Shown here piece after piece: positions 214-8,030 of a stretch of 39,162 bases of DNA; within the stretch, counting starts at the first letter, position 1, and each line of letters opens with the position of its first letter. The position numbers and the translations under genes are program-made. Below the pieces are notes generated by a model. It was not told where the DNA came from, did not search any database, and saw only the letters and a list, made by a program, of their open reading frames with translations. Source of the stretch: a virus (taxonomy: Duplodnaviria > Heunggongvirae > Uroviricota > Caudoviricetes); IMG/VR virus record IMGVR_UViG_2541047691_000016. One strand, given 5' to 3'.

Positions 214-2649
214 TTAGTGCTTCCCTTCTATTAAGTCTAACCTAGCTTTTATTCTTTCTATTTCTCTGCGCTGCCATGCTGCCTCGATATAGAATAAGAG
301 ATCAGGTCTGACCCCCCATCTAGATCCTGCTGGCGTTATTTCAACGCGCTCAATGATGTCTTCCATTACCATCACTGGATTATCATCCTCATCAACAATG
401 ATGCTCCCGTCATTATCAGTCAGCGGCATTTCCCTTTGGCCAGTAATGACGTCATCATATACTGCGGGATAATCGTCATAGCAAAGAAAGGCATAGCGGC
501 ATGTTGTGCTTTCTTCTTCCATGAGTCCGTGAGAAATAAGAACATCACGAAGTTGCTGCGCGATTACACCATGATGTATCCTCGCCCCTTCTTCCCCCTT
601 TATAGCGACAGCGTTCAGCCATTTATAAGCGATATACCTGACGTCACCCCAGGCATCCAGCAATGTTTCGTCAGGAGAGACCGGCTCTGTCTTTAATGTT
701 CCGTCACTGGTAACCACAGGATTGGAGCCAAGATAAACTATCGAGAACCTGTTTCCCGGACCACCAAGAGCATTTACATTATCAAGATAAGGTTTAACAT
801 CTCCGTTCTCAAAAAGATGTTCGAGTGCGTTATATACCGCGCGACGTGGAGTACTGCTTCTGGAACCATGCAACGTTATCATTGCACCATCTGCTGAAGA
901 CGTTGTTTCACCGCCGCTAACGATTAATCTCTGAGCGGTAACATCATCAGACGGTACTTTCTTCGCAATAATGGCGTAATTACCCTCAAGTTTGACTTCC
1001 GCGCGAACTTGTCCTGATGTACCTGCATGGACAGTCAGTGACTGGACGGCAACATCATCTGTGAAATCAACGGGTACAGGAACCGTCCTCACGCCTGACG
1101 TCGACATAAAAGTAGGAAGCGTTCTGTTAGGAGTGGCTCCGTAGACAAAATCCCTTGAAACAAATTCTTCCTGTTTAATTTTCACCCTGAAACAATACAA
1201 ATCAGCCGGGTGACCATCGTGAACATAAGGATATTTTCTGTTGTTATCCCCTATGCTCCATGGGTTTAGAAAGTCTTCCCCACCGAAAATGTAGTACAGC
1301 CAGTTGTCTTTGATACAAACTGAACCAACACCAACCGCAGAGTTAACTATTCCGCCCTGATAAATCTGATCAGTAACATTAACCCACTCTACATTATCCA
1401 GACTCCACTCATTGACGTTAACTCTGGTCATAAATGTTCTTGGATAGTTTCCTGCATAACGGTTATCAGGTTCTCCTCCTTCCCACTCACCAAATGCGCG
1501 CTCACTGCCAAAAATAATCAGCTCATCGCCAACTTTGGCAAAAGGAAGGTTTGAGTGATGAACATTATTTGGGAAGCGAAGAGAATTCCATGATGTACCT
1601 AAATCAGAGCTTCTGTGCAATGAACTACCGGGTTGAGTACTTAATGTCCCCCTGGTCGTCAGATACAGAATGCCATCATAATATTTTACACATGGCTCAG
1701 ATGCATTCGCCTCATATTCTGCAGGTATGCGTCTGCGAACAAAGCTACCAGGAGAACCGAAAGCATCAGAGAAATAGAGTATCCCAAGCTCGCGTGGACC
1801 AATATCACCATTATGGTAGCCAACAGCAAAACTGTTATCGCTAATCGTCGCAAAACTGTGAATCTCAGTAACAGGAGTGCTTCCGTCAACAAAAGAAGGA
1901 ATAGTTCCAAGACTGGTTTTTCTCCATGGTGACGAGTGAAATGATGTACCAAAACTCCAGTATCTACCCTCGTTATTCTGATCCACATCCTGGGTATTTT
2001 GCGTCGTAACTGTAAAAGTATTTTTATCAATAACAGTAGTCACCGTCATATTCCCGGTAACACCTGTAACACCAGAGTTTGAGAAGTTGACAAAATCACC
2101 AGCAAATAATCCGTGATCAGTAATGCGAATATAAGCGACTTGCTGATTTGCTGCTTTCGTTATACCACCATAAACGCGAAGGCTGCGACTCATTGGGCGA
2201 TCCCACAACTCTGCAACCTGCAGTTTATTTCCGCTCACGGTCCGCGTCTCAATTACAGCAAAAAGGCGATTTCTGACAACCCCCATACTCATGCAGTGAT
2301 AGTTAACTGTGGGATAGTTTTCATGTAAATCTGTAAGCCATTCCGGCGTTGTCCAGGTCTTCCCGTCATCTCCTGAGCGAACCCATGCAACATGGAGGTT
2401 ATTTACACCATGGCGGTCTCCAGCCATAAAAGGCGCATAGATGACATTGTCATATACAAACGTTTTATCCTGCGTCCAGGCGTTGTACCACGGTGTATCT
2501 GTAATTTTAAATAACTCTCCCTGGATAAAATCTTCAGAAACATAAAAAAGAGGCTGACCCGGTATTCTCTCAAATAAAAAACGAGCATTTTTAAATCGAC
2601 TGACATCTGGAAGAGTTGATACTTTAAAAGTAAGCCCTCGCCCATCTAT
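214..2649 (-). pseudogene. Tailspike endosialidase (endo-N-acetylneuraminidase), catalytic and C-terminal chaperone part; separated from its head-binding domain by IS2
   Basis: Translation aligns along its length with endoNF-type endosialidase (IPGQPL, DGKTWTTPEWLTDLH, PMSRSL, NFSNSGVTGV, RIHHGVIAQQLRDV motifs as recalled); the ORF-track start at 2676 is a GTG inside the IS2 terminal repeat, so the first 9 codons are IS-derived. Confidence 0.85.
2645..2649. repeat. IS2 target-site duplication copy (TCTAT)
   Basis: Identical 5-mer directly flanks both IS2 ends (2645-2649 and 3981-3985). Confidence 0.85.
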
Positions 2650-2660
2650 TGGATTTGCCC

Positions 2661-3566
2661 CTATATTTCCAGACACCTGTTATCACTTAACCCATTACTG
2701 GCTTGCTGCCGTAGATATTCCCGTGGCGAGCGATAACCCAGTGCACTATGCGGATGCCATTCGTTATAATGCTCGAACGCCTCTGCAAGGTTCTTTGCTG
2801 CCGTTAACCCGTCTGGTTTGGGCATGACACTGATGTAGTCACGCTTTATCGTTTTCACGAAGCTCTCTGCTATGCCGTTACTCTCCGGACTCCGCACCGC
2901 CGTGCTCTTCGGTTCAAGCCCCAACATCCGGGCAAACTGCCGTGTTTCATTAGCCCGGTAGCATGAACCATTATCCGTCAGCCACTCTACTGGAGACGCC
3001 GGAAGCTCGTTGCCGAAGCGGCGTTCCACCGCTCCCAGCATGACGTCCTGTACTGTTTCACTGTTGAAGCCGCCCGTAGTGACCGCCCAGTGCAGTGCCT
3101 CACGGTCACAGCAGTCCAGCGCGAACGTGACTCGCAGTTTTTCTCCGTTATCACAGCGGAACTCGAACCCGTCAGAGCACCATCGCTGATTACTTTCTTT
3201 CACAGCCACTCTGCCTGTATGTGCCCGTTTCGATGGCGGTACAGCAGGTTTTCGCTCAAGCAACAGCGCATTCTGGCGCATGATCCGGTAAACACGTTTG
3301 GCATTGATCGCAGGCATACCATCAAGTTCTGCCTGTCTGCGAAGCAGCGCCCATACCCGACGATAACCATACGTGGGCAGCTCTCCGATAACATGGTGTA
3401 TACGGAGAAGCACATCCGTATCATCAGTGTGACGACTGCGGCGGCCATCCATCCAGTCATCGGTTCGTCTGAGAATGACGTGCAACTGCGCACGCGACAC
3501 CCGGAGACAACGGCTGACTAAGCTTACTCCCCATCCCCGGGCAATAAGGGCGCGTGCGCTATCCAC
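2661..3566 (-). CDS. insD: IS2 transposase OrfB (InsD, DDE integrase domain)
   Basis: 301-aa ORF recognised as IS2 InsD; overlaps insC as expected for the -1 frameshift fusion. Confidence 0.9.
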
Positions 3567-3889
3567 TTTTTTGCCCGTCCATATTCAACGGCTTCTTTGA
3601 GGAGTTCATTTTCCATCGTTTTCTTGCCGAGCAGGCGCTGGAGTTCTTTAATCTGCTTCATGGCGGCAGCAAGTTCAGAGGCAGGAACAACCTGTTCTCC
3701 GGCGGCGACAGCAGTAAGACTTCCTTCCTGGTATTGCTTACGCCAGAGAAATAACTGGCTGGCTGCTACACCATGTTGCCGGGCAACGAGGGAGACCGTC
3801 ATCCCTGGTTCAAAGCTCTGCTGAACAATTGCGATCTTTTCCTGTGTGGTACGCCGTCTGCGTTTCTCCGGTCCTAAGACATCAATCAT
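3524..3889 (-). CDS. insC: IS2 OrfA (InsC, HTH regulator/transposase N-terminal part)
   Basis: Translation from the ATG at 3889 ([18 protein letters not shown]...) matches IS2 InsC; the ORF-track start at 3934 is an upstream extension. Confidence 0.88.
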
Positions 3890-3964
3890 CTGCTCTCCAA
3901 TGACTAGTCTAAAAACTAGTATTAAGACTATCACTTAAATAAGTGATATTGGTTGTCTGGAGAT

Positions 3965-4495
3965 TCAGGGGGCCAGTCTATCTATCTTTTCACCACCTGT
4001 TGCAACAGAAAGTAATTCTGATAGAGCTGATGTATCATCATGAACACCATCACCAATAGCCCCCCACCCTCTTACATCATAACTGTCTCTCCATCTTGCT
4101 ATCTGAAGTTTTGGGTATTTATTCGCTCCATCTGTGTCTTCTAATTGCTGCCGTAACTGATCAGGATCATACTTCAGCACATTAGGAAAATAGAACTGCT
4201 GCGCACCATACGCATCATAAACAGCCATAGAATGGCCTTGCACGGTAACGAATTTGGCAATCTGTCCGTTATATACCGGATATCCAGCAGCGTTAATGAT
4301 TATTGGTTGCGAAACAGGAACGTGAGAACCGTCTTCATTCTCCACATAGACCTGAATCTGGTTTTCTGTATTTACAGGATCAGTGTCAATTTTACCGATA
4401 TAAATTTTGCCATTGGCTACGGCTTTAAAAGAACGCGCCATAGTGAAGAGTTGCGAAGGCATCGATACGATCACATTGGCTGTAATGTCTGTCAT
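3965..4495 (-). pseudogene. Tailspike N-terminal head-binding domain (P22 gp9-like); native sequence is 4495..3986, then the frame runs into IS2 and stops at 3965
   Basis: [40 protein letters not shown]... closely resembles the P22 tailspike N-terminus; the last residues (DRLAP) are IS2-encoded. Confidence 0.88.
3981..3985. repeat. IS2 target-site duplication copy (TCTAT)
   Basis: See partner repeat at 2645-2649. Confidence 0.85.
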
Positions 4496-4553
4496 TTAAT
4501 TTGCTCCAGATACAAGGAATCGCCGAAGCATGGCTACGGTGAATTTTGGGCAT

Positions 4554-4576
4554 AAAAAAACCCAGCCGAAGCTGGG
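4554..4576 (-). terminator. Intrinsic terminator downstream of ant
   Basis: Minus strand: CCCAGC-UUCG-GCUGGG hairpin followed by a U7 run. Confidence 0.6.
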
Positions 4577-4595: not shown

Positions 4596-5498
4596 TCAGT
4601 AGTTATGTACTGAAGGAGGTAATTCTTTATTCTTAAGTCTCATCCATGCGGAAAGATTCGTTGGTCCGTCTGGCTCATTAATATCAACATCTCGTGTATG
4701 GTTGATTAAAACATCTCTCGCCATTCCGATAACATACGAGAATTCATGACCGTAGTCGTAGCATCTGCCGGAATAGTTCGATTGAATTTGTTTTAGCGCC
4801 TGATACAGTTCGCGGAATAATGCCTGTGAGCGGTTGGCATAATCCCATAGCCATACAAGGCTGTTTACTTCTTTTGCAGAAAGCTCGTTGGTTTTCTTCT
4901 CTTGTTTGCCGATGAACTCACCTTCAAGCACTACCCTGTGGATGTACTCTACTGCTTGTGGTATCTGAGATGCATCAAGCTCTTCAATACTTTCCACATT
5001 GAAACGCTGATGAATCATTGCATAAGCTTCTGGGTACATTAGATGCTTTTTGCTGACTAGCATATTTACAGCATCACGAAGCGGAGTCCTGTCATCAACA
5101 GATGTTTTCTTCCGTGCATTTGCTGCCTCTCCCTTTGTCCAGTAGTCATGCAGCACAGTAAAGCATTCTTCCTGGTACTGAATCAGTTTATCGCGGATGT
5201 CAGCACGAACTTTCTCAGGGTTGATGCTGAACAGCCATCCATTTAACTTCTTCAAAGGAAGGCAGAGTAGCTTACGAAGCTTACCATCAGCGGCAACCAT
5301 GTTCATATGAACACAGTTGAATTTGCTAATCTGCTTCATGAGTTTTGTTTGCTGCGTTGACCAGCTCATTCCGAGGTTTTCAACGATTGGCTTCATCGCA
5401 ACATATGCAACTCCGGCAGCCATGGCGGTGATAATTTGCTGACCGTTGAATGGCACGTAAGAGGTGTTCACTGCTTCTAAAATTGCTATACTATTCAT
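4596..5498 (-). CDS. ant: Antirepressor Ant (P22 Ant-like, 300 aa)
   Basis: [26 protein letters not shown]... from the ATG at 5498 with GGAG RBS; the ORF-track start at 5564 is an in-frame upstream extension. Confidence 0.88.
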
Positions 5499-5577
5499 GT
5501 TGGTTTTTCTCCACGGATTTACCGACAACCGAAGCCCTGACTGTTCCAGCAGTTGGGGCTTCACTGTTTTGATTTCT
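5499..5577 (+). ncRNA. Candidate sar-like antisense RNA complementary to the ant ribosome-binding region
   Basis: Extended -10 (TGcTATACT, 5484-5492) on the plus strand inside the ant 5' end; GAAGCCC/GGGCTTC hairpin (5531-5562) followed by a U-rich tract; arrangement matches P22 sar. Confidence 0.4.
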
Positions 5578-5730
5578 TTGCCGCATCAAGCATCACTTCT
5601 GAAAACGTGCGCTTGCCACTGAATACTCTTTCTCTTCTCAATTTTTCGTTCGTGCCAAATGATTCGCCATGAACAAAATTTGGTCTTAAAATGGTAATCG
5701 CAATCTCTTTGACTACTGCATCCAAGCGAA

Positions 5731-5883
5731 TCACACCGTTACCCCCTCTCTCTTCAGGCTGTCTATCAGGCGCTTGATAACCTCTGAGTTAAACGACCTG
5801 CACTCTTCCTTTGCCCTGCTACCGATAGCATCCTTTAACGACTGCGGCATCCTTACCAAAATCTTACTTATTTCTTTCTCCAT
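5731..5883 (-). CDS. arc: Arc-like ribbon-helix-helix repressor (50 aa)
   Basis: MEKEISKILVRMPQSLKDAIGSRAKEECRSFNSEVIKRLIDSLKREG resembles P22 Arc; GGAGGG RBS upstream of the ATG at 5883. Confidence 0.8.
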   Translation of the reverse strand: MEKEISKILVRMPQSLKDAIGSRAKEECRSFNSEVIKRLIDSLKREGVTV

Positions 5884-5997
5884 GTTACCCTCCACGCAAA
5901 CAACTCTTTTCGAATACAAAAGATAGCAAAGTGAGTATATCTAGTCAAAATTTTTTTGCATACACTTTGCTATCAAATTGAATACCAAAGGTGTTAT
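5884..5997. promoter_or_regulatory. Divergent Pant/Pmnt control region with candidate Arc/Mnt operators
   Basis: Lies between divergent arc and mnt; perfect 11-bp inverted repeat ATAGCAAAGTG (5923-5933) / CACTTTGCTAT (5963-5973), each embedded in AGATA...TATCT-like symmetry. Confidence 0.5.
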
Positions 5998-6246
5998 ATG
6001 GCAAAGGGTGTGTCAATTTCTCCAACTACGGTAAGAATCCCTGAATCTTTACGCGAGGCTCTTGCTGTCAGAGCATCAAAAAATGGTCGCTCTGTTAACT
6101 CCGAGATCGTCATGATTTTGCAAGCCGCGATTGATGAAGATAGGTCGCCAAAGTCAGTTGAGTCATTTGCTCAGCAAGAAGCTGATAAATTCAAAGAGGC
6201 GCTACTTGAGACGCTAAAGACCATGTATGCTAAGGATGAAAAATAA
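5998..6246 (+). CDS. mnt: Mnt-like ribbon-helix-helix repressor (82 aa)
   Basis: MAKGVSISPTTVRIPESLREALAVRASKNGRSVNSEIV... with a C-terminus like P22 Mnt; the ORF-track start at 5956 is an upstream extension. Confidence 0.75.
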   Translation: MAKGVSISPTTVRIPESLREALAVRASKNGRSVNSEIVMILQAAIDEDRSPKSVESFAQQEADKFKEALLETLKTMYAKDEK

Positions 6247-6782
6247 TGCTGCACACAATTCATTTCTTATGCCCTGTTAACACTGCCACTGTTGGGCAAC
6301 TTCAGAACCACTGTCTCACCGCATTATCTCAAGGCGCAACTGAATTAAATATCCATATATCAAGTCAGGGAGGGGAAACTGCTGCTGGCTTTACTGCGTA
6401 TAACTTTCTTAAGTCACTCCCTGTTACCGTTAGAACTCACAACATAAGCAATGTTGAATCCATAGCTAATATCGTTTTCCTGGCTGGCTCAGAACGTTTC
6501 GCAAACCCATTATCAAGATTCCTGTTACATCCTCTATTATGGTGCTTTGCCTCCCCAGCCGCCGACCATGCCAGATTGAGAGAGTACGGGAAATGCCTCG
6601 ATAACGATCTTGATCGCTTCGTTGAGACGTTCAATATCGACATCGGAACCCATATTAGGTGGGCATCCCTGATAGCAGACTCGACCATTTTGGATGCTAA
6701 CAAGGCTCTTGAGCATGGCATAATTAATTCCATAAAAACTGCAAGGCTGGCATCCAATCAGGCAAACTGGTGGGTTGTTTGA
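6246..6782 (+). CDS. Truncated ClpP-family (S14) serine peptidase-like protein, 178 aa, translationally coupled to mnt
   Basis: ISSQGGETAAGFTAYNF...SNVESIANIVFLAGSERFANPLSRFLLHP aligns with the ClpP core (INSPGG..AG..IYD..GQAASMG..LLTAGAKGKRF..NSRVMIHQP), with Ser, His and a candidate Asp in register; about 40 N-terminal ClpP residues are absent; start overlaps the mnt stop (TAATG). Confidence 0.65.
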   Translation: MLHTIHFLCPVNTATVGQLQNHCLTALSQGATELNIHISSQGGETAAGFTAYNFLKSLPVTVRTHNISNVESIANIVFLAGSERFANPLSRFLLHPLLWCFASPAADHARLREYGKCLDNDLDRFVETFNIDIGTHIRWASLIADSTILDANKALEHGIINSIKTARLASNQANWWVV

Positions 6783-6807: not shown

Positions 6808-6834
6808 AAAAAACCCACCTGACGGTGGGTTTAG
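6808..6834. terminator. Bidirectional intrinsic terminator between convergent genes
   Basis: AAACCCACC-TGAC-GGTGGGTTT hairpin with A/T runs on both sides; overlaps the stop codon of the 149-aa gene. Confidence 0.65.
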
Positions 6835-7280
6835 TCAAACATAGTGTTTCTAAAGTCTCTCGCATACCCTGCTAACACTCTCATTCTATTATGATTGTTA
6901 GCAGACATGTGAGCTACAGGATGAAAAAGAGCAATCAATGAATACCTGTTCTCATCAAAAAGATTTTGTGCATAAACGAGAGCGGTATTGGATGTTTTAT
7001 GCCACTGCAACTTTTGCGGTGTGCTGATATCTGTGCCATTTTTTATTGGCTCAAATTTATTTTCACCAATTGCTAAATGAAGGTGCATAAGGCCTGCATC
7101 TTCAATATCAGGAGGTCGATGATAAGAGGTGTCTCTGCCAAAATAGCTGGGCAACGTTCCCGTAGACTTGTAGATGATAAAATCATCTACAAGTGTTTGT
7201 TTTAAATCAGGAAACTCAACAAAAACCGGGGAGAAAAAATAGTCAAAACTATCCTGATTATATTCCACGGTTACTTGCAT
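6831..7280 (-). CDS. Hypothetical protein, 149 aa (distal gene of the AT-rich immI two-gene operon)
   Basis: ORF with GAGG RBS 8 nt after the upstream stop; AT-rich; no family recognised. Confidence 0.6.
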   Translation of the reverse strand: MQVTVEYNQDSFDYFFSPVFVEFPDLKQTLVDDFIIYKSTGTLPSYFGRDTSYHRPPDIEDAGLMHLHLAIGENKFEPIKNGTDISTPQKLQWHKTSNTALVYAQNLFDENRYSLIALFHPVAHMSANNHNRMRVLAGYARDFRNTMFD

Positions 7281-7288
7281 GTTTTACC

Positions 7289-7855
7289 TCAGTGGAAGTT
7301 ACCAGAGTGAAACACACGAGTCCCGTGCTCAGCAAGCGCACGCAAACCAGCCATATCTACGGAACTATCAAAAACAACCGGAACACATGAGCGTTGTTTA
7401 ATAAGACTATTCAGGTTGGTTACGGCAGATCTGGCATCAGCAACAACGATATAGATATCTCTTGCGATCTCTTTAAAATCAGCAGAAGCTTCTTTGAATA
7501 CCGATTTCATTGCCCCTTCAAGTCCTCTCAATTGATGCTCTATCAATCGAGACTTTTCTGGTTCAATGATAGACAACACATTGTCTACATTCTCATCGGT
7601 AGCGTTTGCAAGAACACGATAAGCGTATTTCAGCATTCGAGACAATTCTTTAATCGAAGACACCGCCTCATGAAGCTCATCATTAGCCCGTTCACTGCTG
7701 AATGAGGATTGATGGTAAGCGTGCTGAACGTTATCAGTAACAACCACCTCACAACTGAACGCAGAAGCTTGCTGTAATAGCAAACCTATTGCGACTCCAG
7801 CTTTGGCAGCGTTCAAGCTAAACATTTCATCAATCCCATTAGTCTCATTGCTCAT
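7289..7855 (-). CDS. Hypothetical protein, 188 aa (proximal gene of the immI two-gene operon)
   Basis: ATG at 7855 preceded by AAGGAGG with a 5-nt spacer; the ORF-track start at 7885 is an extension; no family recognised. Confidence 0.6.
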   Translation of the reverse strand: MSNETNGIDEMFSLNAAKAGVAIGLLLQQASAFSCEVVVTDNVQHAYHQSSFSSERANDELHEAVSSIKELSRMLKYAYRVLANATDENVDNVLSIIEPEKSRLIEHQLRGLEGAMKSVFKEASADFKEIARDIYIVVADARSAVTNLNSLIKQRSCVPVVFDSSVDMAGLRALAEHGTRVFHSGNFH

Positions 7856-8030
7856 ACAAACCTCCTTCTTATCGGAGATTATCAATAGCTATGCATCCAT
7901 TGAATACACGCTATGCGCAATAAGTTTACGTCACGTGATATCATTATGCAACCACCGTTCTATCACCGACTAACTTTACTCCCACTCCTATACATCATCT
8001 GGTATCCTGCGCAAAACTAAGGAGGTTGGT

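Follow-up and report, generated by a model that had tools for sequence, protein, structure and literature searches.

The sar antisense RNA and a small arc-coupled reading frame in the immI region of a P22-like Escherichia coli prophage

The window, by which we mean the whole 39,162-nucleotide stretch of viral DNA that was analysed (IMG/VR record IMGVR_UViG_2541047691_000016), contains at about 4.5-6.3 kb the immI region, or "ant moron", of a P22-like prophage of the CUS-3/phiv205-1-like type from E. coli. Three intact genes are found here. The antirepressor gene ant (4596-5498, minus strand) encodes 300 aa with the Pfam domains P22_AR_N (4.3e-45) and P22_AR_C (5.2e-29). An arc-like gene for a ribbon-helix-helix repressor of 50 aa (5731-5883, minus strand; Pfam PF03869 Arc, 5.1e-12) yields a protein that has diverged from P22 Arc, and a mnt-like gene for a second ribbon-helix-helix repressor of 82 aa (5998-6246, plus strand; PF03869, 9.5e-11) is transcribed divergently from it. 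RefSeq names both products "Arc family DNA-binding protein". A Pant-like promoter (TTGACT, 17-nt spacer, TGcTATCTT; 9 of 12 matches with the TG in a promoter scan) lies at 5920-5948 on the minus strand, at the position that corresponds to Pant/Pmnt of epsilon34, and is predicted to drive arc, the small reading frame orf57 described below, and ant. This assignment rests on context, since the count of promoter-like matches in the region is at chance level. The stretch 5499-5900 has a 100% identical counterpart in the E. coli ATCC 11775 chromosome and is present at coverage ≥80% in 76 of 5,426 complete E. coli genomes, and 5400-6300 is 98.6% identical to phage phiv205-1.

Several further features surround these genes. 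A 12-nt perfect inverted repeat, GATAGCAAAGTG / CACTTTGCTATC, has its arms at 5922-5933 and 5963-5974, 29 nt apart; one arm overlaps the Pant -10 and the other a putative Pmnt, making the repeat a pair of candidate operators for the divergent Arc/Mnt pair. Just 3′ of ant on the minus strand is an intrinsic terminator (4553-4576; CCCAGC-TTCG-GCTGGG, then TTTTTTTA), the counterpart of one that the epsilon34 annotation places between ant and the tailspike gene. Villafane et al. 2008 (PMC2629481) describe the ant moron as having the gene 16 homologue on one side and the tailspike gene on the other, the same region as in the window. The tailspike here is a K1-type endosialidase (214-4495, minus strand) split by an IS3-family element at about 2677-3960 into a fragment with Head_binding and End_N_terminal domains (3965-4495) and one with End_beta_propel, End_tail_spike, and Peptidase_S74 domains (214-2676); the parts of the element are an HTH_Tnp_1 orfA (3524-3934) and an rve orfB (2661-3566). 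From this split endosialidase gene we take the prophage to be CUS-3-like and probably defective, and selection on immI may be relaxed in such a prophage. On the other side, the start of a gene for a ClpP-like protease of 178 aa (6246-6782, plus strand; Pfam CLP_protease, 2e-11; RefSeq "ATP-dependent Clp protease proteolytic subunit") falls on the mnt-like stop codon (TAATG), and the gene is apparently transcribed together with the repressor; in sibling prophages a P63C-domain gene takes its place. The ant moron also holds a YafO-family type II toxin gene (6831-7280, minus strand; Pfam, 3e-22), and upstream of it an ORF of 188-198 aa (7289-7885, minus strand), in which no Pfam domain was found, would occupy the antitoxin position.

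On the plus strand, the segment from 5499 to about 5570 is almost certainly sar, the cis-antisense RNA of immI (mnt-arc-ant) in P22-like phages. The Rfam model RF00262 (sar RNA) matches 5499-5565 end to end (model positions 1-68 of 68) at 83.9 bits against a gathering score of 43 (E 2.3e-16) and is the sole above-threshold Rfam match in a scan of the whole window. A sub-threshold match to ctRNA_pGA1 (26 bits versus 45) reflects the generic hairpin shape of antisense RNAs alone and was rejected. Judged from the Rfam match, the fold, and a terminator scan, the RNA would be about 67-74 nt long (5499-5572). Its 74-nt form folds at -32.4 kcal/mol (z -6.3), a value that none of 200 shuffled sequences attained, and the minimum free energy structure is the centroid structure, consisting of two stem-loops. 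The first (5499-5526) holds the anti-Shine-Dalgarno sequence UUCUCC (5507-5512) in its loop. The second is the terminator (5531-5562), a 32-nt hairpin of 14 pairs with a 4-nt loop, which the terminator scan reports as followed by ACTGTTTTGA and which leads into the tail ACUGUUUUGA. Its coding segment is antisense to the 5′ leader, Shine-Dalgarno sequence included, of an ant gene with P22_AR_N/P22_AR_C, where the target is GGAGAA at 5507-5512, 8 nt upstream of the ATG at 5496-5498 on the minus strand.

The promoter of this RNA, Psar (5464-5492, plus strand), sits within the first codons of ant and comprises a -35 element GTGTTC (5464-5469), a 17-nt spacer, and the extended -10 element TGcTATACT (5484-5492), the -10 falling in ant codons 3-5. 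Psar was not listed by a generic sigma-70 scan of the region, which we attribute to the weak -35 element; the call is made from the extended -10 and from identity at 29 of 29 positions to the epsilon34 feature "promoter, located by similarity with P22 Psar". The TGCTATACT-type -10 is kept across differing ant types. An earlier note on this DNA had proposed a sar-like plus-strand RNA directed against the ant ribosome-binding site, naming this extended -10 just inside ant and the hairpin with its U-rich tract, and had suggested a covariance-model search. Both elements are present where it placed them, and the RF00262 score, the epsilon34-identical Psar, the two-hairpin fold, and the covarying first stem (below) together argue for the proposal at the level of sequence. 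The note also set the hairpin about 70 nt after the -10. The hairpin ends 70 nt after it and begins only 39 nt after it; the figure of about 70 nt is the length of the sar transcript, not the distance from the -10 to the hairpin.

The same architecture is seen in relatives. P22 sar (RF00262) is likewise antisense to the ant leader and ribosome-binding site, with its promoter in the first ant codons, two hairpins, and the same 32-nt terminator, and nucleotide identity between P22 and the window is 89% over 5401-5563. The two differ in the gene upstream of the terminator, where the window has orf57 and P22 has arc; in the stop codon of that gene, which reaches 2 nt into the hairpin in the window and lies 4 nt away from it in P22; and in the terminator tail, which is ACUGUUUUGAUUU in the window and AACUUUACG in P22. 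The sar of epsilon34 (misc_RNA epsilon34_gp72, EU570103) accompanies the same ant type and is 98% identical over window 5400-5563, and the homologous stretch of that phage is annotated with Psar, the sar misc_RNA, ant, and arc. The 3′ end of sar adjoins a P22-type arc in epsilon34, whereas the window has a divergent arc and orf57 at this place. Neither the RefSeq record of ATCC 11775 nor the phiv205-1 record lists a sar RNA feature. Rfam also finds sar at loci with other ant types (62.6 bits at L003 and 81.8 bits at L005), including a KilA-N-type ant in Klebsiella aerogenes. In 16 ant-leader variants the first stem is re-formed by different sequences with compensatory changes, and the pyrimidine-rich anti-Shine-Dalgarno sequence lies within the loop region in all 16. 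Such covariation of stem 1 with each ant leader indicates selection on the RNA itself.

Between the ant start at 5498 and the arc stop at 5731 the gap is 232 bp, just as the earlier note had measured it. The note viewed this as an enlarged intergenic region in which roughly 150 bp (5578-5730) were unexplained. That view does not hold. The space is filled by a small arc-coupled ORF of 57 codons, orf57 (5561-5734, minus strand), which is present in our ORF list. Public records annotate it as a hypothetical protein, under QGF19908.1 for phiv205-1 and under WP_000620145.1 for E. coli ATCC 11775. The ORF opens with a GTG that shares bases with the TGA stop of arc (GTGA), a Shine-Dalgarno sequence GAGGGGG is located within the last arc codons 5 nt upstream of the start, and the terminator hairpin has as its first two bases the GA of the ORF's own TGA stop. 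The actual intercistronic gap before ant is thus 62 nt, essentially the P22 geometry, and with orf57 occupying the apparent gap, sar would still span the whole intercistronic region before ant, as it does in P22. The protein matches the phage protein family phrog_17642 at E 1.3e-43 (residues 2-57 to profile positions 2-57 of 57). A literature search for WP_000620145 returned no paper that mentions the accession.

We used the terminator sequence to scan IMG/VR for related loci and obtained at least 120 contigs; 5 of the 120 listed were too short, leaving 115 informative ones. The pattern was the 32-nt hairpin with 2 loop positions free, and its constancy in the listed contigs follows from this. 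In 60 of the 115, arc (of several types) abuts the hairpin directly, and in 50 (about 45%) an extra ORF lies between the two. The commonest class of these cassettes comprises four types of zinc-finger-like ORFs (25/115), and the slot is otherwise occupied by orf57 (8/115) or its deletion remnant (3/115), a 73-aa ORF (6/115), an 89-aa membrane protein (6/115), or an 80-aa ORF (2/115); no ORF ends at the hairpin in 5/115. In related phages at least nine small ORFs, orf57 among them, alternate in the arc-sar slot. All cassette ORFs in the listed contigs start on the arc stop and end at the same hairpin-base TGA, and all follow an arc ending in ..DSLKREGxxV, including hybrids with a P22-Arc N-terminus, which implies one recombination joint in the last ~10 arc codons.

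The zinc-finger-like class offers the closest comparison to orf57. One type matches Pfam zf-C4_ClpX (PF06689) at 7.6e-11, and RefSeq calls it "ClpX C4-type zinc finger". These ORFs (for example WP_047668240.1, E. coli AR_0118) share with orf57 their position, the 4-nt overlap with arc, and a terminal ..KQ-TGA on the hairpin base; they are unrelated to it in sequence, and orf57 lacks cysteines as well as any Pfam domain. CxxC...CxxC proteins of 60-74 aa were also noted in the slot of sibling prophages (L006 1563-1745, L008 1312-1494) and of many IMG/VR loci (e.g. L027, L033, L049, and L058).

The terminator hairpin also marks a mosaic boundary (5531-5562). Megablast matches of the region to P22 and epsilon34 stop at window position 5563 (query position 164), the outer edge of the hairpin, and among the 120 viral contigs listed many pairings are seen between the ant-leader types on one side and the arc or cassette types on the other. 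The slot is delimited by the last ~10 codons of arc and by the invariant terminator hairpin, both of which probably serve as recombination joints. The exact 32-nt sequence was additionally seen next to ant-like genes in Pectobacterium brasiliense (L129, 5906-5937) and Entomohabitans teleogrylli (L130, 6776-6807), the only species-representative genomes matched and both outside Escherichia and Salmonella; no arc is adjacent and no arc ORF ends at the hairpin in either.

One tentative interpretation is that the stretch from the end of arc to the terminator is a slot dedicated to the exchange of small accessory genes that are driven by Pant and coupled to arc, with the terminator doubling as a recombination linker. 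The occupants seen in it are orf57, the four zinc-finger-like types including the ClpX-ZBD-like one, the membrane protein, and others. orf57 would then be a previously uncharacterised early protein, active during the burst that follows infection or when Mnt is lost, and its part might lie, for instance, in rivalry among prophages or in taking over the host. We consider this possible, although we would not place it at even odds.

The contrary reading, which we regard as rather unlikely, is that the 170 bp separating arc from the sar terminator have no function: they would be a spacer or a relic, a decaying cassette in which orf57 stays open by chance or inertia. The signs of selection on orf57 are weak. 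Its sole diverged copy, that of K. aerogenes, is 94% identical at the nucleotide level, and the 11 differences fall into 3 synonymous and 8 non-synonymous codons (6/2/3 by codon position), near the neutral expectation; this one comparison gives no sign of purifying selection and leans neutral. Frameshifted or truncated copies are found in public data (P0004, P0006, and P0008-P0010), and in three viral contigs (L032, L066, and L128) a 135-nt internal deletion between GATGC microhomologies leaves a 12-codon ORF, showing that orf57 is dispensable there. Homologues are limited to near-identical copies in a word-index search and in an exhaustive phmmer search of 1.8 billion representative proteins, which confines orf57 to a narrow set of enterobacterial prophages; the 6 sequences in the alignment are 86-98% identical. 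No match was obtained in Pfam at E ≤1 or by sequence in PADLOC or the PDB, a protein scan of species-representative genome contigs found nothing, and the AlphaFold2 single-sequence model is poor (pLDDT 57), giving no confident fold.

Several features of orf57 speak against decay. The start coupled to the arc stop and equipped with a Shine-Dalgarno sequence is shared with the zinc-finger ORFs of the same slot. By codon usage the orf57 frame scores best of the six (0.14, compared with 0.00 for arc and 0.27 for mnt), resembling the neighbouring moron genes, on a scale where the long genes of the phage give 0.30 ± 0.12 for in-frame windows and -0.56 ± 0.26 out of frame. Both natural indels keep the frame, as the 135-nt deletion and a 45-nt insertion in a metagenomic contig (L005, 1542-1760) are multiples of three. 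The ORF has stayed intact with three different arc types in front of it and, after its move to Klebsiella aerogenes, ahead of a KilA-N-type ant, and it forms a PHROG family. On balance we lean slightly toward orf57 being translated into a functional accessory protein.

The sole similarity found for orf57 is to FG-GAP-like repeats, and we judge it to be due to chance. The ORF (5564-5734, minus strand) resembles P0013 residues 220-500 with 35-40% identity over ~50 aa (RxDAVV..ITI.R.N..G.SFG.NE). An assignment to FG-GAP (PF13517) was rejected: each repeat contributes about 25-28 bits, the Pfam models give no match, and the E-values of ~1e-7 to large FG-GAP-repeat proteins are chance similarity inflated at the whole-protein level by the summing of near-identical repeats.

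It is very unlikely that sar is not made or is inactive in this copy, with the element surviving as a recombination linker and as the terminator of a defective prophage. The IS3-family interruption of the tailspike and the coincidence of the hairpin with a mosaic boundary are what such a reading would have in its favour. Against it, the identity of Psar to the epsilon34 promoter is complete, the covariance model matches the whole RNA and extends beyond the hairpin, stem 1 covaries with each ant leader, and ant, arc, and mnt are intact; in P22, moreover, sar was expressed abundantly in recent small-RNA sequencing (PMC13397905). We consider sar likely to be functional in this prophage copy.

Most improbable of all is that the product of the extra 170 bp is an RNA, either a structured one or a longer isoform of sar, instead of a protein: small-RNA reads of P22 do pass the sar terminator into arc, with a 104-nt cluster (PMC13397905), and make a read-through antisense RNA over orf57 conceivable, but a structured RNA at 5566-5735 was rejected for a fold no better than that of shuffled sequences (z -0.5) and for the lack of any Rfam match in the region even at E ≤10, and sibling phages carry unrelated protein-coding cassettes in place of the region. 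A plus-strand promoter-like site at 5664-5692 was also discarded, such sites being as many as expected from shuffled sequence.

The explanation we prefer, with high confidence for the whole, is that the locus consists of sar and an arc-coupled orf57 occupying the slot between arc and the sar terminator. P22 sar was reportedly worked out by Liao et al. in 1987, Wu et al. in 1987, and Schaefer and McClure in 1997. As described in the portions of PMC2629481, PMC11016777, and PMC13397905 that treat sar, the P22 RNA base-pairs with the leader of the ant mRNA and keeps Ant from being translated, limiting antirepressor synthesis and so influencing the choice between lysis and lysogeny. From this P22 literature we infer an equivalent antisense mechanism for the window. 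Psar, inside the first ant codons, would fire opposite to Pant and yield an RNA of ~70 nt perfectly complementary to the ant leader including its Shine-Dalgarno sequence, and pairing would block ant translation such that antirepressor is made in a short burst only. orf57 would be co-transcribed from Pant and translationally coupled to arc, ending on the base of the sar terminator.

The sar RNA is an already known RNA family that has been correctly identified here and is not in itself biologically new; what the window offers is a textbook antisense regulator intact in an E. coli prophage of the CUS-3/phiv205-1 type. The ant moron is described as highly mosaic in the relevant portions of PMC2629481, with ten types in sixteen genomes, unique small genes, and a set that includes the CUS-3, UTI-1, and APEC-1 type prophages of K1 E. 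coli. The arc-sar slot, its alternative cassettes, and the terminator as a boundary come from the present analysis, and no description of them was found in those portions of PMC2629481. This picture has modest added value in that it refines the documented flux of the ant moron. As a lead and not yet a result, if any of the cassettes, such as orf57 or the ClpX-zinc-finger-like ORFs, acts early, the slot would be a place to seek small phage effectors.
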